A stretch of DNA of 64,000 nucleotides from Vicugna vicugna (taxonomy: Eukaryota), in assembly GCA_013265495.1 (NCBI GenBank), contig MU058017.1, positions 505,919-569,918 of the forward strand, in the 5' to 3' direction. The translations under genes and the position numbers were made by a program. Below are positions 12,657 through 34,699 of the stretch, piece after piece (position 1 is the first letter of the stretch; every line of letters starts with the position of its first letter). The notes under the pieces were generated by a model. It saw only the letters and a list, made by a program, of their open reading frames with translations. It was not told the origin of the DNA and did no database searches.

Positions 12657-15600
12657 CCCAGACTCAGTGTCCGACCCTAAGTGTTATGTCACATATCCCC
12701 AAAGCCAGAATTTAAAGCAAACTCTGGAGAAAATTGTTTTACATCAATTACTTCCTTATTGTCTGTAATTTTCAGTCATATAATTAGATCAATCACATTC
12801 CTGTTCAACAGATACTTTATTCTAAAAAGTTACAAGGAGATTAGTTCAGATACCATTGTAGCTAAATAAATGAAGGGCTGAGGAAAGACACCAGCATACA
12901 GTATCAGATTATTAAAATTTTTGTTACAATTTGGATGTCTTTTTTTTTTTTTACTTGGATTCTTATCTGCTTCCTTTTAAAAATTGAACTTAATAAAGTC
13001 ACTCTAGAATTATTAGGATAGCTTCTTTCACTTTTATTGTTCTTTGGAAGGGCCACATTTCTGCAGAAACAGGATTATGCTCAGGAGGCAGAATTCTTTA
13101 TATTTCGATTGTGTTATAGGTCAATCACCATTTTGTTGAATTAAAGTCGTATTCCTATTTCTAAGTTGTTTATGCATTTTTATTGTATTACATATTGCTT
13201 TAAAATAAGCATGGTTTTTGGTTAGTAATCCTTTTGTTAGAGTAGATTTTCTTATTTTAAAGGCTTTTGCCTTAATAGGATTAAAACTGTGTCACCATTT
13301 AAAGCCAAGTTTCTGCTGCTTGCTATAAAAGTTTGCCATTTTCCTATCCCTTTTTATAGTACTTTGTACAAATCCTGTACCTCTTATCTTATCTGCTCTT
13401 GAACTTATGGCAGCTTGGCATGAACATGTGCTTAAGGGAGTCTCCTAACATAGAAGAAAACAATTTTAAAATCTCTAACATGCAACATGTTTTGTGTTCC
13501 TCTTCAAGGTAAAACAATTGCAGGGTATTTTGTTTTTCTGGGAGTATTGTTGATACTTGTTTTTTCTGTTTTATTTCTTGCTTCTTTTCAGTCTGTTTGA
13601 TATCTGCCCTAAGGAGGTCCAGTGTTTTTTCTTTGCATTAGCATAATTATCAGTGATGAATGTCACCCAGCATAACTGCTTTTCCTGACCCTATGTATAC
13701 CATTGTCATCTCTTAGCACATTTGCTCACATATCTTGACTGAATGGCCTTTCTTTCCTTCATTCACTCATTCTCTGTTCAGTTAACATTACCTGCTAATG
13801 TCAGGCATAGCGCTAAGCACCGTTCACGTTTTCCCACTGCACCGTCCACCTGTTACTGCCCTGTACTTTCCTCTGAACTATCTCTTAAATTGCTTTTGTA
13901 TCTCAGTTTCATCATCTTCTTTTGTAGTCCACTCCTTCAGCTAATCTCTTAAGCTTTCCTTTAACTTAGACTTTTCCACTTCAGGTTTTTAATTCACCTG
14001 ACCTCCCCACCTTCTCCCTGTGTCACTTGCCTGCTGGGACTGCTGTACGTCGTCCCTCTCTTTGACTTGCATAGCTCAATTCTGCCCAGGCTTCCAGCTC
14101 CTTCTCCTCACCCGTGAAATTGAAGTAGGCCAGGGGCATTTGTACAGTGGCATCAGTACATTGAAGTGGCCTTGGCTGGATGAGCGTGGAGAATGGCAGC
14201 TCCTTTGCTCTTGCTCTGCTCTCTACACCAGGACAGCCAGCTAAAGTACTGTCCTTAGTGAGGAGGATTTCTTGCAGGGTCACACCTCCATTTCTTCGTG
14301 CAAAATCGCAGAGAATGTTGTGTCATGCTCTATGTAGAATTTTTTTTTTCTACTTGGATCTTTGTGAGATATAGCAGTCTTCCCTGTCAAAAATGCCTTA
14401 TTTGTCGTCATTGTATTATTCTGTGCATGCTGAATTACAGTCATGTCTTTCACTTGATTCAGTGAGTTTTCAGCATATTGAAAAGAATTGCTTTAGCTTA
14501 TTGCCAGGGGACTTAGTCCCACCTTGTAGATGACTGGTTGAATTCAGTTTTCTGTAGTTGGACATACTGATGGATTATCAGAACTGGAAGGGACCTGAAG
14601 AATTATTCAGCTCTTCTGTTTTACATATTAGAAACTCAAGGCCTAGACTGATGAATGCCAAGCCCAGTTTCAAATGAGTGAGGTAGAATTGGAATTTGAG
14701 CCTTCTAATCCCAAACTTTTGTTGAATCAACTGATTTTTCTATAGCATTGATTTAGGGAAGAGATGTGATTAAAGAATGTCCTTTGGGATGATAAATTGT
14801 TGTTGAATTTTTTTTAAACATCCAAGACTGTGATTCATATCTCCCTAAAAGATCTCAATATTAGTGACCTTTGACTCTCAAATGTCCTGATTGCTCTAGA
14901 AAGCAGCAATTCCAATCTAAAATAGTTTGCTTTACAAGCCTAACAGTGCTGTTCTGTGGCCTGATATATGCAGGAGTGGCAACTTACTAGAAAAAATGGG
15001 ATGGAAAACTAAGTTCCAGTAGTCATGTGTTCATACTACATCAGCGATTATCAGGTAGGCCACTCAAAGGATGTGTTTGGCTATTACTCATTTTTGTTGT
15101 TCATTTCCTCCTTGTAACTAAGAATTACCACTTTTTTTTTTCTTCTTGGTCATAGAGAAGGCATAGTTTTAGACCTTAAAGTATGATTCTAATTGTCTTG
15201 CCATTTTGATGGAAATAATCTAATTTTCTTGAAGCAAATTAGGAATTCTTGATAGCACATCTTCTTAGGAAATATGATTCAATAAAGTTCTGTGGAATGA
15301 AGGATTACTTCTGGGTTCACCAGAAAACTTTTGAACTGTCCTAATGAATTCAGTCTGTCTGAGGCTAATGATAGATAGTCCAGTTTGGGGTTGGATTACA
15401 AATAGGATGAGGAATTGAGAAGATCTGGCTGGGGTGTCTGGGTCTGTGATTGTGTGCATATGTGTATACATGTATAGGTAAAATAATTGTAGATCTGCTG
15501 CTCTTTCAGGATGATATTTACCAGTTCCAGCAACCTGTGAGTGAACCATCTGTCAGTTTACTGCCTCACCATTTCCTGGAGAGATGTCCCTTCCTCTTTG

Positions 15601-15673
15601 GCCTTCCATACTGGTAACCAGCTTTCCAGATATTTCTGTAGGTGAACGTATCCAGGCAGTGCGTTGGCATGAC

Positions 15674-15865
15674 TTACCTCTTCCCTCCTATGTGGAGGAA
15701 AGTGTTAGAGGTGACAGTCCTTATGACGTGTAGCTTCTTACAGCCAGGTTGTTGAATAGTCTTATCCATGGGCCCTGGGGGAGCTTTAGGGGAAAGCTTA
15801 CTGATGCCTGTAGATTTTGGTTTAGGGATCCGTGTTGGAATTCTCTGCTTGGATACCTCTTTGAT
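15674..15865 (-). CDS. FILIP1L: Putative FILIP1L alternative terminal coding exon, 63 aa: IKEVSKQRIPTRIPKPKSTGISKLSPKAPPGPMDKTIQQPGCKKLHVIRTVTSNTFLHIGGKR*
   Basis: The minus strand shows a branch-like CATTAAC, a pyrimidine tract (taccttttgttcttctgttt) and AAG|ATC at 15866/15865. A 63-codon open frame in phase 0 matches the ACA|GTAAGT donor at 31792/31791. PTRIP and the terminal GGK resemble the recalled C-terminus of the paralog FILIP1. Confidence 0.78.
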   Translation of the reverse strand: MKEVSKQRIPTRIPKPKSTGISKLSPKAPPGPMDKTIQQPGCKKLHVIRTVTSNTFLHIGGKR

Positions 15866-17138
15866 CTTGAATTAAACAGAAGAACAAAAGGTAGTTAATG
15901 GTACAGTTGATGGAGAAGTGGACATTGTTCAGGACGTAGAGTCAGCTTGGAGATTTTGGCTTTTTGAAAACACTAGGTTCTGGGGACACATCACATTAAA
16001 GATTGTTAAGTTGAAGAAAACATTTTAGTAAAGCAGTTCTGCCAACAAGTGTTGAGTGTGTGCTGTGTGCAGGGCCCTCAAAAGTAGATAAAGTGTCATG
16101 AGATTGCCAGAGAAAGGTTGATTTCAACTGAAGGGTCTAAGAGAGCTTCACAAAGAAAGTAGCATTTGACTTGGGCCTCCAAAGACTTTTAGGATTTTTA
16201 ACGGCAGGAATGGGAGGGCATTTCAGAGTAAAGGAATACTTTTGATAATGTCCCTGAGATAGGAAATCCAGCACAGTTGAGAAATGGAGTGACTTCAAAT
16301 TGGGTTGTATTTGGGATGCAGAATGGGAATTAGACTGGGGCTAGATAGGGAAAATTGTATCTGATTCTACAGATAGTGTGTATATGTGGCGGAGGATAGT
16401 GAGAACATAGGTTGGGAGAAGTCACATTGTGGGGTAGAATTGTATTAATATGTGTTCCTAGTTAACATATGAGTGGTGAGAGAGGAATCATAGACAGGTT
16501 GAATGATCTAGACTAGGAATGTGAGTTGTGGAGTGAAGGCTTGATTTACTTCATATTTGCTTAGAAATATATTCTTATTTTCATTTATTTAGGAAAAATA
16601 CTCTTGGATAAGAATACTTATTGGGAAAGAGATGGGGAAAAATTCTCAGCTAACTGTAGTTCTCCTATTATAAACCACTCAAGATGTTGTTGATGATGAT
16701 GATGATTTTTTCTCCCTCATGTTGCGTCATCCTTTCCTTACCGGGAGCTCAAAAATAGAAATCTTTAAAAAATGCACTATAGTTTTCATCCTAGATTTCT
16801 AATATTGTTTTTATGGAAACCCATCTTATATTGTTTTTCATTCTATAGAAATTTGTCTCCACATTTGCATATTATACTGAGAAAGTAAAGTCCCTTGATC
16901 TCTTTATGTAAATATTCACTTATTTTAAAACCCCCTAACTTCTATGGCAACCATATTTAGATTTGCAAATAAACACTACACAGAGTTGGCTAAAAATATG
17001 AGTCCTTCAATGAAGGCTAAACTTTATGCAGAACGTGCTTTCTTTTGGTATATTTAGTCAATCTTCTCTATGCCTAGGCGCTAGAAGAGTTTTTTAGGCT
17101 TTAGTGTTCTTATGGACATTTAAAAAAAATTTAATCCT

Positions 17139-17348
17139 TGCAGATACTAACTACTGTATATAAAATAGATAAACAACAAGTTTATACTGCGTAGCCTGGG
17201 GAACTATATTCAATATTTTATAGTAACCTACAATGAAAATGAATATGAAAATGAATATATGTATGTATATGTATGACTGAAACATTATGCTGTACATCAG
17301 AAATTGACACAACATTGTAAACTGACTATACCTCAATAAAAAAAAAAA
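17139..17348 (+). mobile_element. 5'-truncated L1 3' end (cetartiodactyl-type)
   Basis: Typical L1 3'UTR end (ataaaatagataaacaacaag...aactgactatacctcAATAAA + poly A). TSD aaaaaaa(t)ttaatcct on both sides, inserted at a TTT/AAAA endonuclease site. Confidence 0.85.
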
Positions 17349-18632
17349 TTAATCCTAAACATAGTAAGTGAGATGTTGATACTCTGATCATTCTCTTCCA
17401 GAAAATAATTAGAGATGCAGGCAAGGCTCTTCGTTTTAACATTTAGAATGATGACAAATGGACACAGTTGAAGACTCCAACAATCAGGATGGAGTAAATG
17501 AATTACACTATAATCATGTGAAGATATTATGCTGTCTTTAAATAATGATGCTTTTGAAGATGGAAAATGTGTATCCAGAAATGTTAAAAGCAGGATTAGA
17601 TTATATACATGCTTTAACTATGTATATTTGAAGAGAAAATACTAGGAGAAAATATACCAGTGCTATCAGTGGTTAACACACTAGTTAGTGGAGTTATAGA
17701 TGCTTTTTATTTTTCTTATGTTTTCTAAATTCTCTACATTTTCTGTAAGTATACAATTTAAAAAAACAACACTAAGTTATATTAAGGCATAAAAAAGGAA
17801 GGAAACACTTCAAAAATGAGCACATTTCTGTGAACATCTACCATATTGTCTAAACGATGAGTAGCAGCTGCAATTGAAATCATAATTTAAGTCAGCTGAT
17901 CTTGTGACCATAGCATTAATAATAGCCTTTCCAAGGTATAGATTTCAGTGATGTCCTTTACTTTGTCAAGATTTAGATTGGTTGTCCTATTTAGTGTACA
18001 GAAATCTATGTTGAGATTCTACTTAAATTGTAGATTCCTCAGCCTTACCTCTAGAAACTAATTCCTTTGTCTGTGAATGCACCCAGAATCCACATTTTTA
18101 ATCAACTCTCAGGGTGATCTATTTGATGTAGGTGGTCAGCCTAACATACTTTGAGAAACACTTTCATTTTTGAACCTCATTTAAACTTAAGCTCTAAGTT
18201 TTCTTTCACTTGGAACTCTGGCCTGCCTGAGTGTGAGAGGTTCAGCACTGTTAAAGGCCAGAGCTCCGTGGCCCAGTGGTCCTAGATGCTTATCAGAACC
18301 ACTGATGGGGCTTTTAAAACACTGCAGATACCCATATCCCATCTTGGAGTCTACTGACTCAGATTGTCAAGGAACGTGATATGGGTACCACAGGTTATTC
18401 AGAACTGAAATCTGTCCAATAAACCAGTTGATATGGAACGCAGTTTTGGTGGGGCTTGTTTCTTGTAAGCTCTACAGACATGTACTGGTGAAGACCGTGT
18501 GGCTTGGAATGGTGGTCATTGGTAAGGTCAGCTGTCCAAAAGTTCCTGGACTCCCATTGTTTCTACACCATTGATGCTGCAACCTTATTTTGTATTTTCT
18601 TGATAACTTCTGATTCCATTACATAGTTTTTA

Positions 18633-18647
18633 CCTCTAGATGGCAGC
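18633..18647 (+). promoter_or_regulatory. Candidate CTCF site
   Basis: CCTCTAGATGGCAGC fits the CTCF core CCWSYAGRKGGCRS. Motif evidence only. Confidence 0.5.
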
Positions 18648-19081
18648 AAAGGTTGGTTATTTTATTAGGACAACTAAATGTCATTCCCAAATCTTAAAAA
18701 AAAAAAAATTCAGGTTTTGTTTCCTTGCATGAATTTTATACTTGGACATATTTCAGCTAATGAGGTATAAGGCTTTAAAATGTGTCATCTCTTGGATCAC
18801 TTTTATAGAACATTATGTCAAATAGCTCCAAGAAAGTTTTATCCAAACTTGAAGTGCATATTGCAAGAGGAATCCATGCATATGGCTCTTTTAAGACCAC
18901 ACAGTGAATGTTCTACTCAGAGTTGGAGGTTCCTGGGTTTCATCAGAGAGCAGATGTCTTGGAGGAGATTAAGCAAGTTGGAGAACTCATTCATAGAAGA
19001 AAAGATAAAAAAAGTTTTTTTAACATAGTTCAACATGGAGATTGGGATTTGGAGTGGATTATAGTCTGAAAGGTGCTGAGT

Positions 19082-19108
19082 TCAGTGAGGCAGAGGCATT
19101 GGTTTGAT
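19082..19108 (-). pseudogene. FILIP1L: Non-spliceable counterpart of a short FILIP1L terminal exon (IKPMPLPH*), with AC at the acceptor position
   Basis: Minus strand reads tactctttttttctttcttctgttccctAC|ATC AAA CCA ATG CCT CTG CCT CAC TGA. The 8-codon length and P..LPH* ending match the recalled human isoform tail VEPLLLPH*, but AC stands where AG is required. Confidence 0.6.
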
Positions 19109-19357
19109 GTAGGGAACAGAAGAAAGAAAAAAAGAGTATATTATGTAGTATATAAGAAGTATACAATAATTCATTATAGAGTATATAAGAATTCATTAAA
19201 TTCTTAAAATGTTGGCTTATTTGGTCCACAGCTTCTAAAAGAAACTGAGCAATCTATGAGATGCCCTGGTTATAGCAAGTCATTAGATGGCATTGAGTTT
19301 TAGTGACCAAAAGAAGTATGGAAAGGTGAAAATGTTTTGTTCAAAATCTTAATTCTA

Positions 19358-19444
19358 GGTAAAGGGAACTAGCTCAATAGTAGAGTGCTTGCTTAGCATG
19401 CACGAGGCCCTGGGTTCAATCCTCAGTACCTCCATTAAAAAAAC
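19358..19444 (+). mobile_element. tRNA-Ala-derived SINE (camelid Vic-1-like)
   Basis: A box TAGCTCAATAG, B box GGGTTCAATCC, tRNA-Ala-like body (gcttagcatgcacgagg) and A-rich tail. Target-site duplication aatcttaattcta (19345-19357) / aatcttaatacta (19445-19457). Confidence 0.85.
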
Positions 19445-20689
19445 AATCTTAATACTATGGCCCAATTTCTGCTTGAGCCTTGTGCTCCCTCACATTATCA
19501 TGAAGGGCAACATCACAAGAAAATCAGCATTTATGAGGAAGCTATCTGATCCTAGTTAGACAGCTGGAGTCAGGATGTTTCTTTTCTCTAAATGAAATTA
19601 ACTTTGTAAGTGCTTTGAACTTTCTGCAGATGTATTGGCAGCATATTGTATAAGAAAGCTGTGTTCCCTCAGGAGTATTCCTGCATTCAGGGACTGCAGG
19701 ACCCCTCGTTACACCTTCAGCTCTAGAGGTTGAAAGGCTCAAGACTCCCAAAGGCCTTGGATTGTTTTGGTTTGTGGTCACTGGGGTGGTACAGGGAGAG
19801 GGCTGTCTGACTCTCAGGGACCCAGCTCTGGAATGCTTGGTCAAGGCTATGAGTTATCAGAATGGCAGAGTTTTGTATTTTTGTTTTTATCTGTTTACTG
19901 GGAAAGTACGTAAGTAATGATGATGGATTATGGTAATGAAAAGGAGGAAATGCTAAACTGGAGAAAAAATATCTTTGAAATATTATTGTCTTCTTTTGTT
20001 TTTTGTATTGTTTGGTAAATCACTGCTAATTTTTTAAAAGGAAATAACAGATAATGAATCTGGCAGATAGCCCAGAGTTTCATATGCTGCTTTGGCTTTT
20101 TTCTCTTGATTTTCTCAGAACTTCTTCATTATACAACAAAACTTTATCACTAAAGGTTTTATAATTTTATATGGCAAGGAGCCCTTCAGAAGGAAACTAT
20201 AGTTTCATTAGCTTATTCCTACTGAGCTCTTGTGAGAGAACATTTGGTTTTAAATAGGGTTGCAGTGCTATGGTTTATAGTTTAGAGTTGTCCAGTTTCT
20301 TAGGTGAGGGTTAGAGGAAATTGATGCCTTTGTTTTATAATGTAACATGGTCTGTGATTGTACCTAGTCACCTCCCAGTCTCCCTGTAGTAATTACACCA
20401 TGGGCAGTGAGGGCAGTCCAAGAATAAGCATTGAAATATAGTTTTCAAAAATCCTTCCTAACCTAGTTGCTTTTATTTTGTGCCCATATACAGCATTACC
20501 TGTAGAAATAGACTGTTAAATACACTAACCTTGAACTGCTGTCTTGTTTATCACTTTTCTTCTTATTCATCTGTCAGGGTTTTCACCTCAGCTTTTTTCC
20601 TTCTTTTTTCATACCCACCCTACTCTTTCTCATTCCTTCATTGCATCCATGTAATTTTTTAAAATTGTTCACAGGCTTACATTTTACAG

Positions 20690-20945
20690 CAGCCTTGGGT
20701 TAGTGGCTAGAGTGCAAACTGTGGAGTCAAATAAACCTAGGTGAGTCTCCATTCTGGTTCTGGCACCAACTAGCTGTGTGTCTTTGAGCAAGCCAGTTTG
20801 CCTGTGCAGACCTTAGTTTCCTCATCTGTAACCCTTATTTGGGGATTAGAATACCTACCTGCAAGTTCTTTGGTGGGGAAAAAGATACTGTGTAGGAAAG
20901 TCCTTGGCACATCCAAAGAGTTATTAGGGAAGTGTTAGTTGTTAC
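20690..20945 (+). mobile_element. MIR SINE
   Basis: ctagctgtgtgtctttgagcaag...cttagtttcctcatctgtaa core. Confidence 0.75.
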
Positions 20946-21489
20946 TAATGTCAGCATTATTATCTTTGTCTTTTTCCTTATATCTAGTCTTAAGATGCCT
21001 TTTTCTTGATCATAACTATAACTTAACCTTCTTTGCTTATTTTACCTTTCTTATTTTTCTGCTTTGTCCCTTGTTGTGTCATCTCTCCAGTTAATTATGG
21101 GAGATATGTTGCTAAGCATAGCAGCTGTGGCAGCAGACCGAGCAGTGGCAATTACTGGACTGTGTTTCTAACCACCACTGGCCCAGAAAAGAACCACGTC
21201 ACACATCCTTTTCCCTCCTTATCCTACTTGGTTTGTTCATTGTGAATCTGTTTTTCAGAGTTCACTTGAAAACATATTATTTTCTACTCTTTCTTGTCTT
21301 TTTCTATCTTTTAGGTGTTTGAAAAAAATGAAGCAGTTATACAAACTTTAAAGTCCTTTGACCCTGACATTCAGTGATTCCTTGAAAAGAACAAATGTAA
21401 GCCAGCTGTGGCCACCAGGTGTGTTGTTAGACATGTGCACCTCTGTTGAGCACCAACTACCAAGAATGTACAAGTTCTGGATAATGTAG

Positions 21490-21648
21490 GACAATGATTC
21501 TTAAACTTTATAAGCCCAGGAAATGACCCAGGCAGCTTGTTGAGATGCAGATTCCCTGCATTGGATTTCATAGGTCTGGGTATGTGGAAGTCTGCAGAGT
21601 TCTAGGTGATTCTGATAAAGACGATCAGTGACTGCATTTTGAGAAATA
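21490..21648. mobile_element. MER5-type hAT MITE
   Basis: caatgattcttaaactt...gatgcagattccctg...ggtgattctgat...tttgagaaa. Confidence 0.65.
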
Positions 21649-21679
21649 TTAATATATGAATTTCAGAAATAAATGATAC

Positions 21680-22560
21680 CTGATTCTTACTCTCAAGATT
21701 ATAGTATAGGATGAGTAACTAATAATTATAAGAGGAGGCAAAATGAAATGCTATAGTAGGATACTAACTGAAGTGTTTTGGAAACTCAGAGAAAGATTGA
21801 AAAATAAGGAGTTTTCTAGAGGAAATGGCTTACTCCTTGAGACTGGAGTAAGATTTCAATACAAGGAACAAAGAGAGAAGTGCATTACAGCCCTAGGAAC
21901 AGCATGAGCAGAAAAGTACAGGGTCAAAAGTATGTGGTATGTGGGAGGATGGTCAGTACTGTGTTCTGGTGAGAGTGCAGGTTATTTCCAGAATTTCAAG
22001 GAGAGATGACATGAGAGATGGAAGCCTGGTAGAAGGTTTAGATTTGGGTCACTTGGTAATGTAAGTGCTAAGTAAGCGCTGTTTTATGGGGAGGGAGTGA
22101 GAATTGCCAGGACAGTGTTGTAGAAAGATCACCAGCAACACAAATGAAAGTTGAATTAGAGGTAAGTGATTAAATGTAGTAGATTAACTATCTTACAGTA
22201 GCATCTGTATTGAGTTCTGGATTTGGACAGTAGTAGAACAAATAAAAGAGGGAAGGCAGAGGAAGAAATACTAGGGCAGGGTGACTGATTGGACCTGGGG
22301 GGGTGAGCATAAAAGTGGAGAGTGGTACCCAGATGTTGAACCTGGGCAACAGAGAAGGTGGTGGCCATCACCAAAAGTGAGGCAAAAAGCAATCCAAGAG
22401 CGACAGTGCACTGGAATGTGGGCACACACCAAGTTTGAAGTGTAGTTGGACCTTCCATGTGGAACTGTTTGGTAGGCATTGAAAACTTGGAGATGTTGCC
22501 TTGAGAATCATCACAGAAAATTTGTTGATACCATTCAAGTGGCTGAGACAGCCCAGGAAG
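21680..22560 (-). mobile_element. L2 LINE fragment
   Basis: Purine-rich, diverged reverse L2 sequence (agcatgagcagaaa, ccttccatgtggaactgtttggtaggcattg). Confidence 0.55.
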
Positions 22561-25500
22561 AAAGTGTAATTCTGTAATTCCTCCTCATCTGCCACTCTTT
22601 TCTTCTCCCAACATGGGTTCTTCTACATCCTTTTCCCAGAGTCTGAGAGGTGAGTTTTGTTGGGCCCTATCCTGTGCCCAGTCCCTCTACAAGGCCACCA
22701 ATCTCACTAATTGATAAGAGTGTAACTCGTTCTGAGAGCAGCCCTATAAGGAGGAAGCATTTCTTTCCAGTACTTGAACAATGCATAGTGATTAAACCAT
22801 TTTCCAGGCACTGATTGGCTAGCTGGGGAAGGGAAATCCTGCCCCTCTCCTGCAATGGCCAGGCTGGCCCCTGGGCCGTTGTGTCTGGGCTGAGCAGACT
22901 GATTACATAAACTTGCATTCTGTCGGGGGATCTGCCACTCCTTAGCACAAGGGGCATTCAGTAATTACAGGATGGTCCCCCTAAAGCACATTTCCTTCCT
23001 CATTGGCAGTCTGAGAAAGCCTGGAATAGGGCCATGGTTGATAGGTTGACCTAAAAAAATTAGTAGTAATTTCCCATTGTTCTCCCTAGTCCTCTCATTA
23101 TCCTTGGTAAAATCAGTGGCTCTGGCAACATTTATATTCTTCAAAAGTTTTGTAATAAGGTATTATTCTTATAATCAGAAAAAAAGCTTTATATAAAAAT
23201 TATTCTATATATGTTTATCATTATGAGGGATGTTCTCCTTCTTAGAGTGATCTCTACCCATTGACCCCCTCCCTGCTGCCCTGGAAGAACTATCAAGTGT
23301 TTAAATGTTTCTTGTATTATGGGCCCTTTGGGGATCTATTGCAGTTTTTAGTTGACTCCTCTTTCTGTAAAACAGTACTTTTCTGAGGCCTCAAAACTGA
23401 CTAATACTAGTTTATTCAGGCAAGAACACCATTATAAGGCAAAGAACAGAAAAGGAATAGCTATTTTTTTCAAAAGAGTAGGGGGTAAAAACAGCCAATT
23501 CACTAATGGTAAAGGATAGTAGTTTGTTCTTGAGGAATTGCTTTGAATGGCTGCATTGAGGTAGGTTTTTATCTTCATTTAATTGTTATGAGAAATAATT
23601 GGAGGCCAACTGGAAGATTTTCCTCTAAAATGGCAAATTTATTTATGATGCTTCCTTTGTTTACAGTTATTAATCCTGAACTGGAAGCAGAATTTAGAGA
23701 CCAACAGGGTTAAACCCTGACACTTTTCCCGCTGAGCTCCAAAAATACACCGGGCAATTTGGAGATGATCTGTCTTTCTTTGTTAAGTCATGATGTTGCT
23801 TAAGAAATAGAAACTGTAGATTAGGGTATACCATCTAGGAAGATTTTCTAGGGTTCTGCCAAGGCAGAAGTCTCTGGACTAAGCTGGTGGTGCTTGTCTT
23901 TTTGATGGCTAGATCTTGGCCCCTAGATTGCCTTTTCTGGAGATCTTGGGTCACTGTCAGGATTGTCAAGGCTGCCACCTACTTGTAAGCTTTGATGTGC
24001 ATGGTTGTGATTCTCCTTCTATGGATCATTTTCACTCACTTCTCATGCTTTTCTCTCCAGCCACCTCTTGAGGCCAGCCAGGTACCTCCTGCTCTGCACA
24101 TGTTGATATCCTGTCCAGACTCATTCATCATGCCTGGAACTTGTGCTTTGCTTATAGAATCCTGCTTTAGAATAGAATGGGCTTGGGACTGCAGCTTCAG
24201 TGCTTCCTGAGTAGTCTCCTGACGATGAGGGCTTGTAGCTCTCCTTGGTCTTGCTTCCTCGCATCTCCTGTCCACAGCACCATCCCTAGATCAGTCTACC
24301 CCATGCCTGCCCATTTGTGTGGGGTCTGGCCTCTCACATTCATTATCTCTTGTTAACCTCACAGTGGCTGTTAGGGGACCTAACTGAGGGAGACAGGAGG
24401 AGATGAAAAGGGAGGCAGATTGCCACCCTCATCTGAGGTGATTATGGAAGGTTACAGAAAAGGTAAGGCTTGAGCTTCCAGTGTGGGTCACTTGATGAGA
24501 GAAGAGAATTCTACCCAGGTAGAGCAGTGGGGAGAGGGAAGGGGATAGCCCTGTGTATATGTAGGGGCTTCCCAAGTGTTTTGGCTACAGTGGCAGACTT
24601 GTGGGGCAGAGCGCAGGAAGGTCTCGTCAGGTACCCAGCCTATGTCCGTGGGCAGTGGGCAATTTATTATACCTCCTCCGTGCACCAAGGTAGCTTCTCA
24701 GTATGTTGCCATGGAAAGGGAATGGGGCAATGCAATTAGACCTATGTTCATGTCTCTTTTTTATCACATACTAACAGAGCTACCGGGAACAATTTTCCCT
24801 ACTTCTCAGAATTTAAAGTTTTTTATCTCTAAAATTGTGATGATACCCACTTCATAGAGTTGTTTAAAATGAAGTAACAGTGTATGAAAGATTAGATTTC
24901 TGTTATCTCACTACCCAGAAGCCTCTCTGAGGACAGAGTGCCCCCTAGCATTGTATTCAAGGCCCTTCACAGACTGACAGGACTGTGCCCTTTGAACCTT
25001 ACCCCTGCCCCAACATCTCAACATCACCCACACTGCATTGCTCACTGTTCTTTGATCATTGGTTTTCTGCTCTCCCCGCTGCCCCCACATCTCTGCTCTG
25101 GACATTTCCTGGAATGCCTTTTGTCTTTTCTCTATCCCAGCCTTCCTCATCTTCTAACCTCCCAACCCCCCACCCACCTCGCTCAAGTGTTATCTGAGAC
25201 CTGACCCCTGAACCCTGCCCAAAGTAACCTGCTCCTCCTCCAAACTCCTAAAGTGCTTACTGTCTATAGAATTCCTTCTCTGTGCTGTGCTCTTAATTAC
25301 CTTTTAAGTTGGTCCTCAACTGCCACCTTAGATTCTAAATCTTGCACCTGCATAGCTGCCCTGCATAGCAAATAAGTAATATTAGCTGCTTCATAAAGAC
25401 TTGTGGATTCATTGTTGTAGATGATTTGCTGAGGAATGAAGAAAGCTTGTATCCTAATAGAAGACATTTGTGCCTGTGGTGGTTATGAGCTAATTCAAAG

Positions 25501-25974
25501 GGAATTGAAAATCCTCAGAGAGGATGGTTTAGAAGGGTCTAAACAGTAAAGAGTTATCTCTTAAATTCTTGGGAATCCTGCTGAAGCCATTTTTCCCTCA
25601 TTAAAGCAAAGTTGGTTAGACTTCTGTTTATTTCTCTCAAAGAAATATGGAAAATGAAAATCTCACCTGAAAATACTAGTTTATAATCTGGTATCTTTGA
25701 AAGAGACAAAGGTACAAGTTATTAATACAAACATAAATGTTTAAATATACATGTGCTCTTGGGCTGATCTGTCAATTAATGGAAATGAGCCTTGTTCAGT
25801 GAAACTCTTCAGTGCAGGTTTTTAAAGTTGCTTTGAGGCTTATATTTAATTAGATTCAAGAGTCTCATCTCTGCACACCAGTTATAAGAGTTTTCAAATG
25901 AGCTGTCAAATTTTTGTCACAGCAAGTAATGTAGAAGAGGAACTGGCTTTTAGAATCAGGTGATCCCTCTCTAA

Positions 25975-26165
25975 TGCAGTGGTTCTCACCCAGGATGATT
26001 TTGCCCCCAAGAGAACGTTTGGCTATGTCTGGAGACATTTTTGCTAGTCATAGTTGGGGGATGACGCTACTTGGAAGCCAAAAATGCACCTAAATGTCCT
26101 GTAATGCACAGGACATTCTCCCATAACAATCATCTGACCCAAACTATTAATAGTCCTGAGGTTGT
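25975..26165. mobile_element. MER20 DNA transposon
   Basis: cagtggttctca...gattttgccccc...tgtctggagacatttttg...ctaaatgtcctgtaatgcacaggaca. Confidence 0.8.
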
Positions 26166-29100
26166 CTTCTCATGAAGAAAGAACTGATATCGTAAGGATT
26201 AAAGACATCAATTCATAAAATCTTAGAGATGAAAACAAATCTTTAGAGACCATCTAGTAGTTAGGATGCCTACAAGTAGGAAAATGAGAAAGGATAAATT
26301 TAATTTGTGAAAAGAAACTCATGCAGGTAATTGGTTTATTTATGCCACAACCTAATTTCTCAAAAGAATGTTAAACAATTAAGGGAGGGTGGCAAGACTT
26401 GGAGAGAATTTAAAAAATCATTGGAAGTTAGAGCTAGACATCATCTTAGACATGGCCAAGTCCAGTTCTCTCTGTTTCACAGATTAAATTACTTCTCCAG
26501 GGCCCCATAGCTGACTAGATCTGTTTGTCTGCTTCAAATGCTCCCTTCCCCTCATCATTCCACTTACCTAAATCTACCCTTATCCAGTTTCACACTTCAG
26601 TTGCTCTGTGAAACTTTGTCAATATACTGTAGTTCCCCTTAATCTCTAGTTTATTTTCTAGTAGGAAATTTAGTTGCCACTTGATTAAATAGTCTGATAT
26701 TCTTGTTTCTTGTCTCCTTTCCTTGCCCAAATTAATAAACTCTTGAAGGACAGTGGATCTTTTGTCTTCTTAATATACTCCCAGTTCAGTCTGTCATGAT
26801 CAGTGGGTTGATCAGTTGTGTCCATGTGGTGCTTTGAAGAGAAGACACTGCATGCTGAGACACTGTGCATATCACTGAGGTTCGAGTGCCCGTCAGTTAG
26901 TAAACCCTCTCCACCCTTCCAGAGGCGCAGAGAGTGGCAGAGAGTGGCAGAGAGCCTTTGTAGGTCTGCAGGGCCTATATACACTGTTGGTTATCCAAAA
27001 GTGACTAGCCTTTGAAAAACAAAACAAAACCTAACTGGCAAAAAAAAGTTCTCTGTTAGGTAACCTTACAAAAATATGTAAAACCATTTGGCTAGGCGGG
27101 AAAAAGGAAGTCACTAAAATAAGAAAATGAATTTTAGGCTTTCAAAAAATTCTCTCAAATAATCAGATAAATTTTATTTCTCTTGACCAATAATTTTGAA
27201 AAAAGAAAGTGAAATTTTAAAATGAGGCCCCAAGAGGATTATCTCTAGGTTTGCTGACTGCAGTGCTGAAGGTTAGCCCAGAGTACATTTTGATGGCATC
27301 ATTTTAAGTGTAAAACCTGGTGTCCTAATGGCATATTGACAGAGTTGTGTGTGCTGCCATGTAAACGGTGTTAATTCACTATCAGATTATAAAGTACTTA
27401 GAGGAGTGTTGGCCATTTAACTTGCTGAACTCCTTAAGGATTGCTTACCCTACAGCGTTGCCTTTTGCGGGGTGCCTGCTCTGATATATTTGACCACACA
27501 GTGGAAGGGCCCATCAGTTGGAAAGGAAAGGACTTGGAGTTTAAACTAAAGGAAGGTGAATTTTAAGGGGGTTTAAGGTTTGGGGATTTTATTGAACCAC
27601 TTATCTTTCCTTAATCCTTCTTGTGTTTACTTCACCGTGGCCTAAAGTGAATGGGGTCCTTTGTTTTGGCTCATCAAAACTGCTCTCTTTAATGTGTGTT
27701 CTGGATCATTCCCAAGAAATGCTGTAGGGTTATGTTGAGGGCCTGAGATCTGAGAGAGAAATGGAGCTTGTCAGTGTCAGATAGCTTGCTACTGCTCAGT
27801 TAAAGATTCAGGCATCTATGTTTTGCTACAGGTAAAAAACTGGGAACCTTCCCACCATATAAAATGGTAGTTTTTTTATTGAGCTTTTCTTTTGAATAAA
27901 AGGATAACGCGGGGAATAAGCCTTTTGTTTGTCATGACAGCCACTAGAGGGTAGAACAGTTACACTTCCTGAGACAGGTGTAATTCATTCTAATAGAACA
28001 GGACTAGGGTTGGGAGACATTTGCTAGTGTTTATCAATGTAGAAATTTCTAAAACAATGGGATTCCTTCTATAGATACATACTAATCAGTGGAGGACCTT
28101 GTTAAAAATGTAGCTTCTGGGCCCTATTCTCCAAGATTGTGATTTGATAGCTCTAGATGGGACTTCAGGGGATTCTCATACATTTGTCTTGGATTTTGCT
28201 TTGAGAAGTACTGATCTTAATGTTTTAGGCATGCATTATTACCTGATTATCTTTTCTTTTAGGATCACAAAGCAAAATGATTATTTTGGAGGGAAAAACA
28301 ATAACAGAAACCAAAATGCAGGGAAATGAGTGTTATTAAAGCTTTCTCTGCCTTAATCTAACACATTTCAAAGGAGACTCATTTTGTAAAGATTCAGAAT
28401 CAAAGAAGTTATTAAAAATATGTTTTTATGTGGAGTTATATTTCAGTCAATAAAGATCTCTAGAATCCTTAGGCTACAAGCCTAAGAATTTTAAATTAAA
28501 TTCCCTTCTTATGACCATCTCACAGTGCAACCTAATTGTATCCTTTGGGTGTCATGAAGTCCCCACATCTAATGTCTTGGCATTGTGAAATGTGGTTGTG
28601 GAGACCTTCTAAGTAGAGCTTATATATAACATCATGTCATTATCTTGAACATCATAACTTTCCTTTATATGTAAAGATCCAACTGTAGTAATGTGCATTG
28701 TCCTTCTGGTAAGGATGGTGATTTTGTTTTTACCGGTGCCCCCAGAGAACAATGGCATCCTTGGGAAAGCTTTGCCACTGCTCTTAAAAGGGAAGAAGTG
28801 TGTGTGATAAAATCATTCAAATCTGTGATAGGATGCTGCAGCTCAAAAAGTTAGAGAGATAGGGAGACCAAATAAAATGAAACTTGGTTCTGAAGCTGAG
28901 ACTTCGGATGAAATAAAATGAAAGGAAGATATTTTTCCAGAGGTTTATAGAAACAGTCTTGTCTTCTGTGAACCTCTTATGGGCCTTCTTTTTTTTGTGA
29001 CTACAACCTTCCACTTTCATATATCTCATATGAAGATTTTCTAGTGTCACTTACTCTGTCCTTCCTAGTTTTCAAGGTTCTTCTGTGACTTTATGTAAGT

Positions 29101-31228
29101 GAATGAAAAAGAAAGTTCTGTAACACACACATACACACCTAGAGTTATGAAAAATTATTTTTGAAATTAAAGGTCAAAAATCTACAATATGTCATTCTCT
29201 GTGTGATTTTATAGAAAAGGGAAGATATTTTTCAGAGATGAAGCTTTCTTTACCATTAATTAGCTAACAGTAAGCACTTCAGTTAAGTAGCACTTTTAAT
29301 AATCTATGTTATTAATATGACAATGTTCTGAATTTTGATTCAGATGTGAATTATTACACCAAAGTAATCCTAGGAGAGGAACCTCTAAAAGAGGTTTAGT
29401 TCCTTGAAAATCCAATAAACTTACTGGGAAGCCTATTTATAGTTAATATCTAGAGTAGATGATGAAGTGAGAATTTGTGCATTATAATCATGGAGCACAG
29501 GACTTAACGGTCTTAACTTTATGGTAGAGAATTGCTGTGGCTCACATAAAATAACAAATTGAATCCTTACAGAACAGACTAATGAAGAGCCCAGAGCTTC
29601 TCCAGTTGTATTAGTTACAGGGTTGGCCAAGAATGACTTTTTACCTTAGCACTTGGGGCAGCCAGGAGGAACCTGGGGGTGACAGGAATCCCTCGGCTGG
29701 TCATCTCCGCCTCTTGTATCCAGTATGTTTTCTGTTTGTGTCATTATGTGAGAAAAGTTGGGAAGTGCTAAAAGGACTTTTTTCTTTAATCTTTTCCAGT
29801 TTCTGTTCATTTGTTTATGATCAATTGATCACTACTCTCCAAAACATTACAGATACTCTCTTGATTATTATCTAGAAAGACATCTCATGCAGCAACATTA
29901 TCAATGTCTACTTTTAAAGACGTAAAATGATGTATGTGATTTCTTCTACAGTTCTAGCCCATGGTGTCTTAAAAATAGCTTTGGAAAACATTTAGACCAT
30001 CATGTATTTTGTAATACAGTTGGGTTACTGCCGATTCCCAAGATAAATGTGTTTAAACAGAAGCTTTCTCATTCAGCACTAGCCTCAGCTTTCATCCAAA
30101 TTTATTTAATGATGATGCAAACCCACAGTGTTGGTGTTGTAGTTCATCACCATGGAAGTGTTTCTGTCAACAAATCCTTGCTTTGCTATCATGAAACTGA
30201 TTTTGCAGGGAAAGGAGGATAACTGTGAAAGATTCCTTTTACTTCTAAACATCTTCACAGTTTGCCTGGGTGTCTAAATGAATTGTGTTTAAAATCAATA
30301 ACTGGCAATAAAATTGACTACACTAAGTTAACAGTTATGAGGTTGGAAAAAGGAAAATGGCAATGAGCTACTTTGTCTGAAATCATCTTTTAGGAATGTG
30401 ACTTGGGAACCAAATTTGTAATTTAAAATGTTCCTCTGAAAGCTGTTGTTCTTTGCTGCAGAAGTACTGATTATGTTCAGAGAGTCCCATTAGCCAGGTA
30501 TCAGAATTCTTTGGATACCTTTTTTTTGGTGGTGGTGGGGGTGGCTGAGTTTTTCTCACCTACTTTGAAAATGGCATAACAATAATCACAGAAGAAACTT
30601 CCTTAAACTAACATACTGTATTTTTTTAATATGCCTTTTCTATAACTTAGGTTTATAAATATTTTTGTTTTTTATTAGCTTGTTGAGAGGATGAAAAAAA
30701 ATATATATATGATTTAAGTTTAAGCTTCTGAATGCAGCCCACTAACAAGCTAAGTAGGAGGCACCTACCTTAAGTAATCCAAACTATTTTGGGAACCAAA
30801 TAGGAAAAAGGAACAAGAATGACACTTTTGCTTTGAAGCAGCATGTTCAGGAGCATATGTCACAGTGGCTGATTCCAGGTTTGGATATAGACATATATGT
30901 TTTAAGGAGATTTACATCTATTGTAGAAATACAGTCACCTCTTGATTGTCAAGGTAACTTGCATTTCCAAATGTGCTTTTTCTGGCTTCCTATCACATTT
31001 CAAAGCTTTTTACTTTGACTATCAGCTCATATGTGCTCACAAAAGCAACTTATTTAATATTATTTTATGCAGTTATTATCATATAAACATTTATTAAGTT
31101 CCCAAGTTCCTAACACGTGCTAAGTACTGTGCTGGGCACCAGAGATACTGAGATACATCTCAAGCATGAAGTTAAGTTTGTTCCTGAGAGATCTTATAGT
31201 TTGCTTTGAAATCAAAGAGACATAAAAT

Positions 31229-31238
31229 TTTATTTATT
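31229..31238 (-). terminator. FILIP1L: Polyadenylation signal (two overlapping AATAAA) for the FILIP1L read-through isoform
   Basis: + strand TTTATTTATT reads AATAAATAAA on the minus strand, ~530 nt after the TGA at 31771. It is followed by U/GU-rich sequence (ttttatgtctctttgattt). Confidence 0.7.
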
Positions 31239-31770
31239 TCAGCCACTTCCTTCTCCTCCTCTAATATGTGATCAGAAGTTGACTGTAAATGGGAAGTGGG
31301 TCCTGTTTGTTTTTAAGGAAGAATTAATAGACGTTATAAACAGAAAATAAAATTCTGTTATACATGCAAAAAAAAAAAAAGAACACAAAATGGCCAAAAG
31401 AAAATTCAGCAAGCAATGGTAAAAATAACAAATTATTTACTGCTTTATAATGTTAACGTATTTCACCAAGACAAGTTGCAGTCAAATTAATGTGAGTTAT
31501 GGAAAATGAAATACATAAAAATGTATTTATACAAGTGCAGACTAAATATTTTCCATACAGGTATGTAAATGAAAAGATATACAGTAAGTGCACACTTGAT
31601 ATGACTATGCAGGCAACACTTAGTTAGTTTCAGATACTCTTGGATAGTTCATGCACAGATCTTCCCAAAGTACAAGTTCAGTCAGTCTTTTGGGGGATGT
31701 GGAGGGATAATTAAAAAGGACTGAGTTCCTTGCAATACTATCAGTATAGACTGGATAAGGGTGAGGGTCG

Positions 31771-34567
31771 TCAGTTATATATATTACTTACTGTAATTTG
31801 TGATTGTCGAGGAAGAGGTGTGGCTGTTGGTGTGATAGTAATACTGCTGGTGACTTTATTGGCGGTTTTGTTTAGTGCCCCATTAGTTAAGCCTTGAGTT
31901 CGGTTATCCTGCGGTGGTGTTGAAGGGCTGGTAGGTCTCACGGGGCTGGCTACAGCTTGCATGTAAGGACTTCCTAAGTGAATGTGGATTTTATTATCCT
32001 CAGTAGTTATCACACTTGAACTGTTACTGTTTGAACGTTGAAACTGCCATGATGACTGCCGGTCAGGGGAGACTCTGAAAATCGCATGCTTGGCACTGAT
32101 TTCTGTCGGCTCTGGAGAGCGTCCCTGCTCAGGGGTGCTAGCTGAGCCAGTAACAGCCAAAACCTGAATAGGTGACATTGTCCTTTCTGGAGTTATGGAA
32201 CCACAAGACTCTGGGGTCTGCGCCCTGGCCAAGGTTGCCATGGTAATTGGGGATATGCCTTGCTCTAAATTCATAAGGCCTTCACCAGAGGTTTTGGATT
32301 TCACTGGTGTAATGGAGGCATTTTGGAGGATGGTTATCCTTTGCTTTGGGGTGCCACAGTTTGGTATCACTGCAGTGCTTGTGTAAGAGTGAGGACTCTC
32401 TGTGGTCGGACTTGTGATTTCAAGAGTGGCTGTGTTTTGGGCATGGTCTGGAGTGACCTTTATATGAAGTGGCTGCCCGGGAGTGTGGCTTAGGACTAGA
32501 TCTCCTGGTTGCACGAAGTTGCCATTGGACTTAGTTTGTATTTTTCCATTCTGAGGATGGCCTTCCTTGGACTTCATCCAGGGAATCCATAGCTTCCTGT
32601 TCACAGGACAGGGAGTAGACGAGTTGCATCTGAAGGAAAGCACAGGCTCTTCATCATTAGGGTCCTCATCCTGGTCTGCACTCTCCTCATATAACTGACC
32701 ATTGATGACTGCTCGTTCCAGAGGAATGAGACTCTTGTAATCTGGTGGCTCATTGTCTACGGCTTCTGTCTGAACTTCTTTAGAAAATACTTGAGGATCA
32801 GAGATTCTTCTTCCATTGAGACTAGGCCGGAGGCTCTTACTGAAATGACGGTACCTCTCTAACTCTTTAGTGAGGTTTTCAATCTCTCTTCCTAAATCTC
32901 TGTTCCTGTTCTCTTGTTGATTGAGTTTCTTTTGCAGAACTGAATGATCTCCCTGGAGGTGGCATATCAGGTCCTCAGTTGCCATGTATTCATGAATTTT
33001 CTCTTTCAGTGCGTCTACTTCTCTTGAGAGGTGCCCTGATTTAGCTTCTTCTTCTTGAAGCCTTTTGAAAAGCCACTGTTCATGACTGGACTCTGTCTTT
33101 TCTGCTAACTTGTACTTGGCAAGTTCCATTTTAACATGTTCCAGCTCTTCAGATAAAAATTGAGCTTTGTCTCGTTCATTAGCATACCTTCGTTCTAGAG
33201 TCTCATACTCATCTTCCGTTTTCATGAGGTCATCCTCAATAGCTTTCATATCCTTTAACTTCAGTTTCAGTCTTTCCACTTCTTGAGAGAGCTCTTTAAT
33301 TTTATTGTTCTCTTGGTGTAATGCTGTTGTGGACTTACCAGAATCTTGATTTAGTTTGTTTTTAAGGAAATCTTTCTCAATTGCTTCCAGTGATTGAAGC
33401 CTATTTTTCAACATGTTAACTTTGGACAGGAGATCATTTCCTTTCTCTTCTTCTGCTTTCAGTTTGTTTTTTAGGTCATCTCTCTCTTTGGTTACATTGT
33501 ACATTTTTTCTTCCACATCAGTTTTGGACTTAAGTGCCCTTTTAGTTTCCTCAATTAACTTTTCAGTAACTGTTGTCACTTTATTTTGTTCCACTTGAAG
33601 CTGAGAAGCAGCAGCTTGTAACTTATCTTCAGTTTGCTTTAATTTTTCACTCATTGTTTTCCGTTCATCTACCAGCATCACAGTTAATGTTTTCAGTTTA
33701 GTTAAGTCCTCTTTTAGGGTGAATTCTGTCTTTTCCAGCCGACTTTCAATGGTTTCTAGCTCTTTGATCCTTATCTTTAAACTCTCTAGTTCTTGAGACA
33801 ATTGCTTTGTGGTCATCCTTTCTTTTTCTAAACTGCATTTCAGAGAGTGACATTCTTGTTTGCTTTTATTGAAAGCATCTTCTAATTTTTCCAGAGCCAT
33901 AATCCTTTTACTGAGTTTTTCAACCTCAAGTTTAAAGTCTTTGCTCTGTGATGTTTCCTTTTCCAGCCTCTTATTGAGATCTCTGCACTGCTCCTCCATT
34001 TTTATGAGCTCTTCATCCTTCCCTTCCATTTCTAGCACACGTTTTCTGAGCTCCTCCACTTCAACCATGATACTGGAGTTTCCATATTCTCCCTTGTTGA
34101 TTTTTTCTTTTATATCTTGCAGTTCCTCTTCTGCTTTTCGTAAAGACCTGTTTGTCTCTTCTAACTCATCAATTTGCCGGCTAAGTGCTGCCAGCTTTTG
34201 TCGAAGCTGGCGGTTTTGACTGTCCTCGTTTGTGAGCTTCGCCATAATTGCTTCTTGGTTCTGGTGAAACTCTGTGGTCTGTGTTTGCAGTTCTTCCTCT
34301 AGTCTGGTTGCCTTCTGCTCTTCCTCCTGAACCCTGGCTTCAGCAAGGGCTAGTTTAGCATGTGTTTCCTTTGCACTTGTGGTTAGGTCTTGGATTTTCT
34401 GTCTTTGAAGGGTAAGCTGTGCCGTCAGCCTCTGTTGCTCGTCCACCACCATCAAAGCAAAAGACTTCAGTTTGGTCAGCTCCTCTTTCAGGGCGGTGAC
34501 CCTCTTCTCTTTTTCTTGCTCCTTCTTCTCCTGGGACTCAGTTTCTTGGTCAATCAACCTTTTTAAT
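31771..34567 (-). CDS. FILIP1L: FILIP1L (filamin A-interacting protein 1-like / DOC1) large coding exon: long coiled coil plus S/T/P-rich tail, read-through C-terminus VSNIYN*
   Basis: The 928-aa ORF is recognisable as FILIP1L ([35 protein letters not shown]). The acceptor ttgtatttttcAG|A is at 34568/34567 (phase 2; reads R-L-K-R-L-I-D-Q-E), so the TTG start in the ORF track is not the true start. The first ATG in the exon (34452, MVVDEQQR) gives 893 aa to the stop at 31771. Confidence 0.97.
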
Positions 34568-34699
34568 CTGAAAAATACAAGAGTGCAATCTGTTTTGTGA
34601 TTGTTGTTTTAGTAACTAACTTATCAGCTGTGACTAAACATTTATGTAATTTAGAAGGAGTAAAGGCAAGAATATTTGGTTTAAAATTCTTGTATAACA

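Follow-up and report, generated by a model that had tools for sequence, protein, structure and literature searches.

A conserved alternative 3′ exon of FILIP1L in Vicugna vicugna carries a candidate SxIP microtubule tip-localisation signal

We analysed a stretch of 64,000 nucleotides of the Vicugna vicugna genome (assembly GCA_013265495.1, contig MU058017.1, positions 505,919 to 569,918 of the forward strand; hereafter the window, numbered from its first letter), which carries coding exons of the gene FILIP1L on its minus strand. A 63-codon stretch far downstream of the large coding exon of this gene is almost certainly a real coding exon. The reading that we favour, with some reserve, is that it forms a conserved alternative 3′ exon whose tail would act as a tip-localisation signal of the SxIP type, i.e. 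a short motif bound by the end-binding (EB) proteins of growing microtubules. The exon is not a discovery, being already present in public gene models, and just its functional reading is unpublished as far as our searches reach. The features on which the argument depends are as follows, with a slash marking splice junctions here and below.

31792-34569, minus strand: large FILIP1L coding exon with coiled-coil and S/T/P-rich regions; 3′ end PRQSQIT, last codon ACA at 31794-31792
31771-31791, minus strand: splice donor GTAAGT (31791-31786) and read-through ending VSNIYN plus stop, seen in the sequence
15866-31791, minus strand: intron of 15,926 nucleotides from the large exon to the 63-codon exon, from the SQIT/IKEV junction in mammalian protein models
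15866-15900, minus strand: CATTAAC (branch-point-like, 15900-15894), pyrimidine-rich tract and acceptor AG (15867-15866), seen in the sequence
15677-15865, minus strand: 63-codon coding part of the alternative 3′ exon (IKEVSKQRIPTRIPKPKS...FLHIGGKR), from translation and homology
15824-15835, minus strand: codons T11-R12-I13-P14, candidate SxIP (EB-binding) core with K-P-K-S next, from translation, alignment and context rules
15692-15736, minus strand: second conserved block K44-H58 (KLHVIRTVTSNTFLH), FILIP1L-specific, from alignments
15672-15679, minus strand: stop codon TAA inside the consensus donor string AG/GTAAGT, seen in the sequence

The frame of the large exon is open for 945 codons from stop to stop (34608-31771), and the cheetah and Bos X1 proteins align to it from 34569 on with 93-96% identity (tblastn). 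The acceptor lies in the context ttaattcaAG/ATC, which makes 15865 the first base of the 63-codon exon, and the phase is 0 at both the donor (31792) and the acceptor (15865). Translation of 15865-15674 yields 63 residues (IKEVSKQRIPTRIPKPKSTGISKLSPKAPPGPMDKTIQQPGCKKLHVIRTVTSNTFLHIGGKR) followed by TAA (15676-15674), and together with the 887 residues that begin at the MVVDEQ start they give a long-tail product of 950 amino acids. An earlier note on this DNA, made from its letters alone, had already described the CATTAAC element, the acceptor, the peptide, the phase, the 15,926-nucleotide intron and the 950-residue product, and all of these statements hold on re-reading. The open frame by itself is of little weight: beyond the donor, the same strand has 42 stretches that run 63 or more codons without a stop, and of the 2344 AG dinucleotides there, 70 are succeeded by an open frame of this length or longer. 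A 63-codon open frame is thus at chance level, so the case for the exon rests on comparison with other species.

This comparison gave a uniform answer. When the 63-residue peptide was searched against longer proteins, all 10 matches at E ≤ 0.01 were FILIP1L models, named 'filamin A-interacting protein 1-like' (E-values from 3.8e-25 to 9.9e-19; 71-84% identity; full coverage), belonging to cheetah, foxes, manatee, stoat, warthog, two bats, marmoset and gundi. A profile search with the tail returned 26 clusters, all 26 of them FILIP1L. With bird tails added to the profile, 37 clusters were found at E ≤ 10 among 6204 candidates, every one carrying the FILIP1L tail and none representing another family; 36 are named FILIP1L or FIL1L, and the remaining one, a songbird 'hypothetical protein', has the same tail. 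These clusters comprise mammals, many birds and a turtle, and the peptide thus matches only FILIP1L proteins of these three groups. Protein ends were read from a listing of the members of eight of the 37 clusters (77 rows). The SQIT/I junction is directly visible in all but one (a songbird model) of the 73 long-tail proteins retrieved from the databases, reading SQIT/IKEV in mammals, SQIT/IT in birds and SQIT/IA in the turtle. Judged by this distribution, the exon is evolutionarily old and common to mammals, birds and turtles.

Models with the long tail include dog X1 (1187 amino acids), Bos indicus X1 (1183), green monkey (1190), marmoset X1 (1190), bonobo X2 (1190), chimpanzee (950 and 1002), arctic fox X4 and manatee (both 950), as well as sheep, bottlenose dolphin, several squirrels, colugo and mouse lemur, and bird isoforms of 1215-1217 amino acids. 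In most of them the tail is 59-63 residues long and ends at GGKR or GGRR. Several of the listed rows bear UniRef/TrEMBL accessions, which we take to derive from a second annotation pipeline (Ensembl). The exon had been presented as hidden. This description does not stand, given that NCBI predicted isoforms and UniRef/TrEMBL entries of many animals already hold it: the exon is missing from the list of open reading frames and present in public gene models. Compared with the annotated long FILIP1L isoforms, the exon in the window is their ortholog, with the same junction and a similar tail length and end; the bird long isoforms differ in carrying 29 further residues. The window's species is not among the named matches, and the closest core is that of Bos (96.6% identity). 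A representative search of the whole protein library with the 63-residue tail gave just two matches at E ≤ 0.001. One is a 90-residue fragment with a homologous tail; the other, a 1047-residue repeat protein that aligns in 10 stretches on a PPTPPGP-type repeat, was judged spurious.

Placental tails are 67-84% identical to the window tail (66.7% in a lemur, 84% in cheetah and Bos), compared with 92-97% for the 887-residue core, and bird and turtle tails reach 46-56% compared with 77% for the core. These values are from global alignments, with row P0015 left out of the core/tail comparison; in the searches, the bird and turtle tails showed 39-56% identity. A 19-sequence alignment of unaltered proteins (mammals, birds and one turtle) has invariant tail positions at I1, T11, I13, P14, K15, P16, K17, K35, T50, S53, L57 and G61, and displays two conserved islands, T-x-I-P-K-P-K and K-L-H-I-I-R-T-V-(T)-S. 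The first of these is the best conserved block of the tail, its pattern [ST]x[IL]P-[KR]-[PL]-[KR] being kept in 56 of 59 distinct tails, and no D or E occurs within four positions of the motif on either side in any of the 59. These distinct tails stem from 74 long-tail proteins (73 from the databases plus the window peptide) out of 109, after exclusion of the 35 without a long tail. The window tail itself contains 14 K+R, two D+E, eight P and 11 S+T among its 63 residues (pI 11.2). The identities and the alignment are those of a fast-evolving segment with islands of constraint, which, as its composition also suggests, is probably disordered.

According to the review PMC4834103, SxIP motifs have the form S/T-x-I/L-P and lie in disordered regions in which P, S and basic residues abound, with no acidic residue nearby and one or more basic residues in the four positions before the motif; oligomerisation is stated there to raise their affinity. 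The tail TRIP (qripTRIPkpks) passes these rules on core and neighbouring residues and is the sole site in this FILIP1L to do so: in the large exon, SLIP is flanked by D and E, and TPLP has no preceding basic residue. The proposal that TRIP fits the SxIP rules is therefore borne out by the scan and, with TRIP the only passing site, inclusion of the exon would add the motif to the protein. Canonical SxIP microtubule-tip localisation signals, reportedly described by Honnappa and colleagues in 2009, occur in MACF, APC, CLASP, STIM1 and other proteins. FILIP1L shares with them the core, the acid-free context, the preceding basic residue and the P/S/basic-rich stretch, and its coiled coil could add avidity; it differs in that the candidate motif is present in one splice form only. 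CTTNBP2 has in common with FILIP1L the N-terminal CortBP2/FILIP domain (PF09727), by which both are members of one wider family, and is itself listed as an SxIP-containing plus-end tracking protein (+TIP) in PMC4834103; the two differ in C-terminal architecture. A complex prediction with two copies of this genome's EB-homology exon of EB1 and the tail returned a score of 0.02 and a mark of 0.34, which, with controls not folded, is evidence neither way. On the strength of the motif and its context, we consider the odds to lean slightly towards EB binding by the TRIP of the FILIP1L tail.

The paralog FILIP1 offers the closest comparison. FILIP1 is reported to bind EB1 and EB3 via SxIP motifs in PMC10313560 (citing Jiang et al. 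2012), where its colocalisation with EB3 in differentiating myotubes is also described, and is tabulated as an SxIP +TIP in PMC4834103. When the FILIP1L core was searched against the window's own assembly we found, besides FILIP1L itself and a third locus (see below), a 49%-identical large exon on another contig, that of FILIP1, which ends ARGTQSV/GTGAGT. FILIP1L tails searched against the 40 kb downstream of this exon gave one match, 3.2 kb on (tblastn, E 0.002-0.14). There the FILIP1 last exon joins as ttctctcttacag/TCA (acceptor cag/TCA) in phase 0 and comprises 68 codons (SGQDGSSQRPTPTRIPMSKGMKAGKPVVAAPGAGNLTKFEPRAETQSMKIELKKSAAASTASPGGGKG, then a stop; L012:3189-3392), among them SQRPTPTRIPMSKG. 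It ends PTRIP...GGGKG, so the FILIP1 ending given in the earlier note is present in the window's own genome. FILIP1 here has three sites that pass the context rules, two in the large exon (SWIP and TIIP) and one, TRIP, in the last; where FILIP1 has SWIP and TIIP, FILIP1L has LWIP and non-motif sequence.

In both genes the exon in question is the first one after the phase-0 donor of the large exon, of 68 codons in FILIP1 and 63 in FILIP1L, with P-T-R-I-P some 11-16 residues in, surrounded by basic and no acidic residues, and a GGK-like end. The differences are in the intron (3.2 kb in FILIP1 versus 15.9 kb in FILIP1L), in the rest of the tails, which are otherwise unalignable, and in EB binding, which is reported for FILIP1 only. 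An alignment of the two tails covered the PTRIP region alone (23 columns, E 8.9e-4, probability 23%; hhalign), database profile searches with FILIP1L tails did not recover FILIP1, and no counterpart of the second FILIP1L block (K44-H58) was found in the FILIP1 tail. Given the shared position, phase, size and motif, gene structure makes a good case for homology of the two exons, and sequence a weak one. The idea that the tail represents an ancestral FILIP-type C-terminus is nonetheless a fair reading, as FILIP1 has a positionally equivalent last exon with PTRIP. By these alignments, little but the motif has stayed common to the two tails since the genes duplicated.

Shorter C-termini are available at the same donor. 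Read-through yields SQIT followed by VSNIYN and a stop (31791-31771), the same ending as in human isoform 2 (NP_055705.2) and many X1 models. Another ending is encoded within the intron:

19082-19110, minus strand: 8-codon alternative last exon IKPMPLPH plus TGA (19108-19082), identical at 8/8 residues to the end of horse NP_001157368.1 (tblastn)

The coding letters of IKPMPLPH occupy 19108-19085 and, in this genome, the dinucleotide before them is AC (19110-19109), not AG. The IKPMPLPH isoform may be disabled here, or else the AC may be an assembly error or a polymorphism. The short FILIP1L endings mentioned in the earlier note thus do exist, VSNIYN in the human protein and IKPMPLPH in that of the horse.

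The mechanism that we propose can be put as follows. Phase-0 splicing from 31792 to 15865, a junction presumably used in this species, would swap the short ending (VSNIYN or IKPMPLPH) for the old 63-residue basic tail. T-R-I-P-K-P-K would then dock into the EB-homology domain of EB1 or EB3, with the dimeric coiled coil adding avidity, and only the long-tail isoform would follow growing plus ends, its remaining parts being engaged with filamin and actin. A bolder extension, which we put forward tentatively and hold to be less probable than its negation, is that the choice of last exon is a conserved on/off switch for the sole functional SxIP of FILIP1L. The long form would be an EB-dependent link between microtubules and filamin/actin like FILIP1, whereas the commonly studied short forms could not track; the switch would be disabled by a T-to-A change in chimpanzee, bonobo and possibly human, and biased to the long form in the window's species. 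This last bias is conceivable because the competing mini-exon has no AG acceptor here.

Several points weigh against the proposed reading. The tail evolves faster than the core, and its resemblance to the FILIP1 tail extends over some 23 residues only; FILIP1, moreover, has two other passing sites (SWIP and TIIP) besides its tail TRIP, and short linear motifs often match without function. The chief counter-evidence is that the motif threonine is lost in bonobo (ARIP), chimpanzee (ARIP, plus KLK) and the bat Sturnira (MRIP), with the rest of the tail intact. The protein models are mostly automatic predictions whose frames are intact by construction, and species that had lost the exon would simply be missing from them. 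The full-text literature within our reach, that is outside subscription papers and supplements, describes no SxIP tail or plus-end role of FILIP1L. A weak hint of expression, on the other side, comes from a run index, in which 19 runs contain half or more of the 52 words sampled from 15300-15865; five of the 19 are on record as RNA sequencing (two studies, shares of 0.61-0.64), and five unlabelled runs contain every word. The shares show only that a large part of the exon and of the flank 3′ of it is represented in RNA-library assemblies, not that the junction is used, and unspliced RNA, DNA or a close relative could account for them.

The alternative that survives best is that the exon is real and conserved but was selected for something other than EB binding, the SxIP match being incidental. 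The blocks T-R-I-P-K-P-K and KLH[IV]IRTVTSNTFLH could serve as a filamin-type β-strand ligand, in binding to an acidic surface or, in the case of R8-x-x-T11, which fits the RxxS/T pattern of basophilic kinases, as a kinase site (R-x-x-T). The second block is as conserved within FILIP1L as the first and has no FILIP1 counterpart, so that the tail carries more than the motif, and the genus Pan and one bat have lost the threonine yet kept the remaining tail. Set against this, PTRIP with its flanking basic residues is the sole part of the last exon that still aligns between FILIP1 and FILIP1L, FILIP1 is a reported SxIP/EB partner, and the site agrees with all of the published context rules. We regard this alternative as unlikely, though as one to be taken seriously, and prefer a tip-localisation signal.

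It is rather improbable, in our view, that the exon is often internal, with AG/GTAAGT used as a donor so that the stop is removed and the frame continues into downstream exons. The donor consensus at 15679-15672 is perfect, and models of five non-bird species (the otter Lutra, the elephant seal Mirounga, the mouse lemur Microcebus, the tree shrew Tupaia and the green turtle Chelonia) continue past GGKR, as do six bird models (five complete and one partial), after GGRR, with a conserved stretch of 29 residues, VHSNSLNGST... (VHSNSLNGSTDNLWE...). The five non-bird extensions are mutually unrelated, however, and those of the mammals look lineage-specific or like artefactual joins, whereas the majority of long-tail models end at GGKR or GGRR. 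No convincing homolog of the extensions past GGKR was found in the window, and the weak alignment of the bird extension with the in-frame sequence after the stop was counted as no finding. Past the stop, the first canonical poly(A) signals, 1.7-2.1 kb away, are ATTAAA (13993) and AATAAA (13575). The label 'terminal' given to the exon in the earlier note is hence right for most models, which stop there, and too strict in that the stop lies within a donor consensus and the models of several species splice onward: the exon is usually terminal, with AG/GTAAGT an occasional alternative donor. The SxIP-bearing part would in any event be included whether the exon is internal or terminal.

That the exon is in this species a relic or a rare noisy splice product, with the short C-termini doing the work and the conservation coming from other lineages, is very improbable: the well-described references do end short (human NP_055705.2, horse NP_001157368.1), but frame, acceptor, motif and stop are intact, identity to the cheetah and Bos tails reaches 84%, the RNA-labelled runs contain about 0.6 of the words sampled from this exon and the flank 3′ of it, and the AC that stands in place of an AG before the IKPMPLPH mini-exon would, if it has any effect, tip the balance to the long tail.

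FILIP1L has been studied as a tumour suppressor at centrosomes, its loss giving cytokinesis and spindle-orientation defects (PMC8563430). An EB-binding isoform would give the protein a direct route to microtubule ends, and would extend to FILIP1L the idea of a microtubule-actin cytolinker that has been proposed for its paralog FILIP1. Results obtained with the short human isoform might then not transfer to species or tissues with the long tail, nor the reverse, as in chimpanzee and bonobo, which are without the motif threonine. The text of PMC8563430 contains no discussion of FILIP1L isoforms or of the C-terminus (the word 'isoform' appears a single time, in a patent disclosure on p53, and 'C-terminal' is absent). 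Among the literature on FILIP1L isoforms, C-terminus, splice variants and exons, nothing concerns the tail by title or abstract; full-text co-mentions of FILIP1L and plus ends are incidental, EB1 standing beside FILIP1L only in a reference title. The exon is known from annotation and SxIP-mediated EB binding is known for FILIP1; what appears to be new is that the sole qualifying SxIP site of FILIP1L sits on an alternatively included last exon.

The third locus found with the FILIP1L core in the window's own assembly shows 40% identity to residues 70-471 of the core and is presumably LUZP1-like; its long open frame contains no [ST]x[IL]P site that passes the context rules. The 63-codon exon and the IKPMPLPH exon both start ATCAAA after TTCTTCTGTT, and we considered a local duplication as their origin, which was rejected because 53 of 300 shuffles equalled or exceeded the local alignment score of 20. 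Three of all the extensions and odd endings searched in the window matched it, namely horse IKPMPLPH and the endings of dog isoform X2 and of a muntjac model. The dog X2 ending matches 15992-15825 (minus strand) from an upstream acceptor and in another frame, with 68% identity over 56 aligned positions, which means that the same DNA is annotated in two frames in another species. The C-terminal 51 residues of the muntjac FILIP1L model, named 'hypothetical protein', match intronic 30483-30331 (minus strand) with 67% identity, and this ending probably reflects either faulty annotation or a minor exon.

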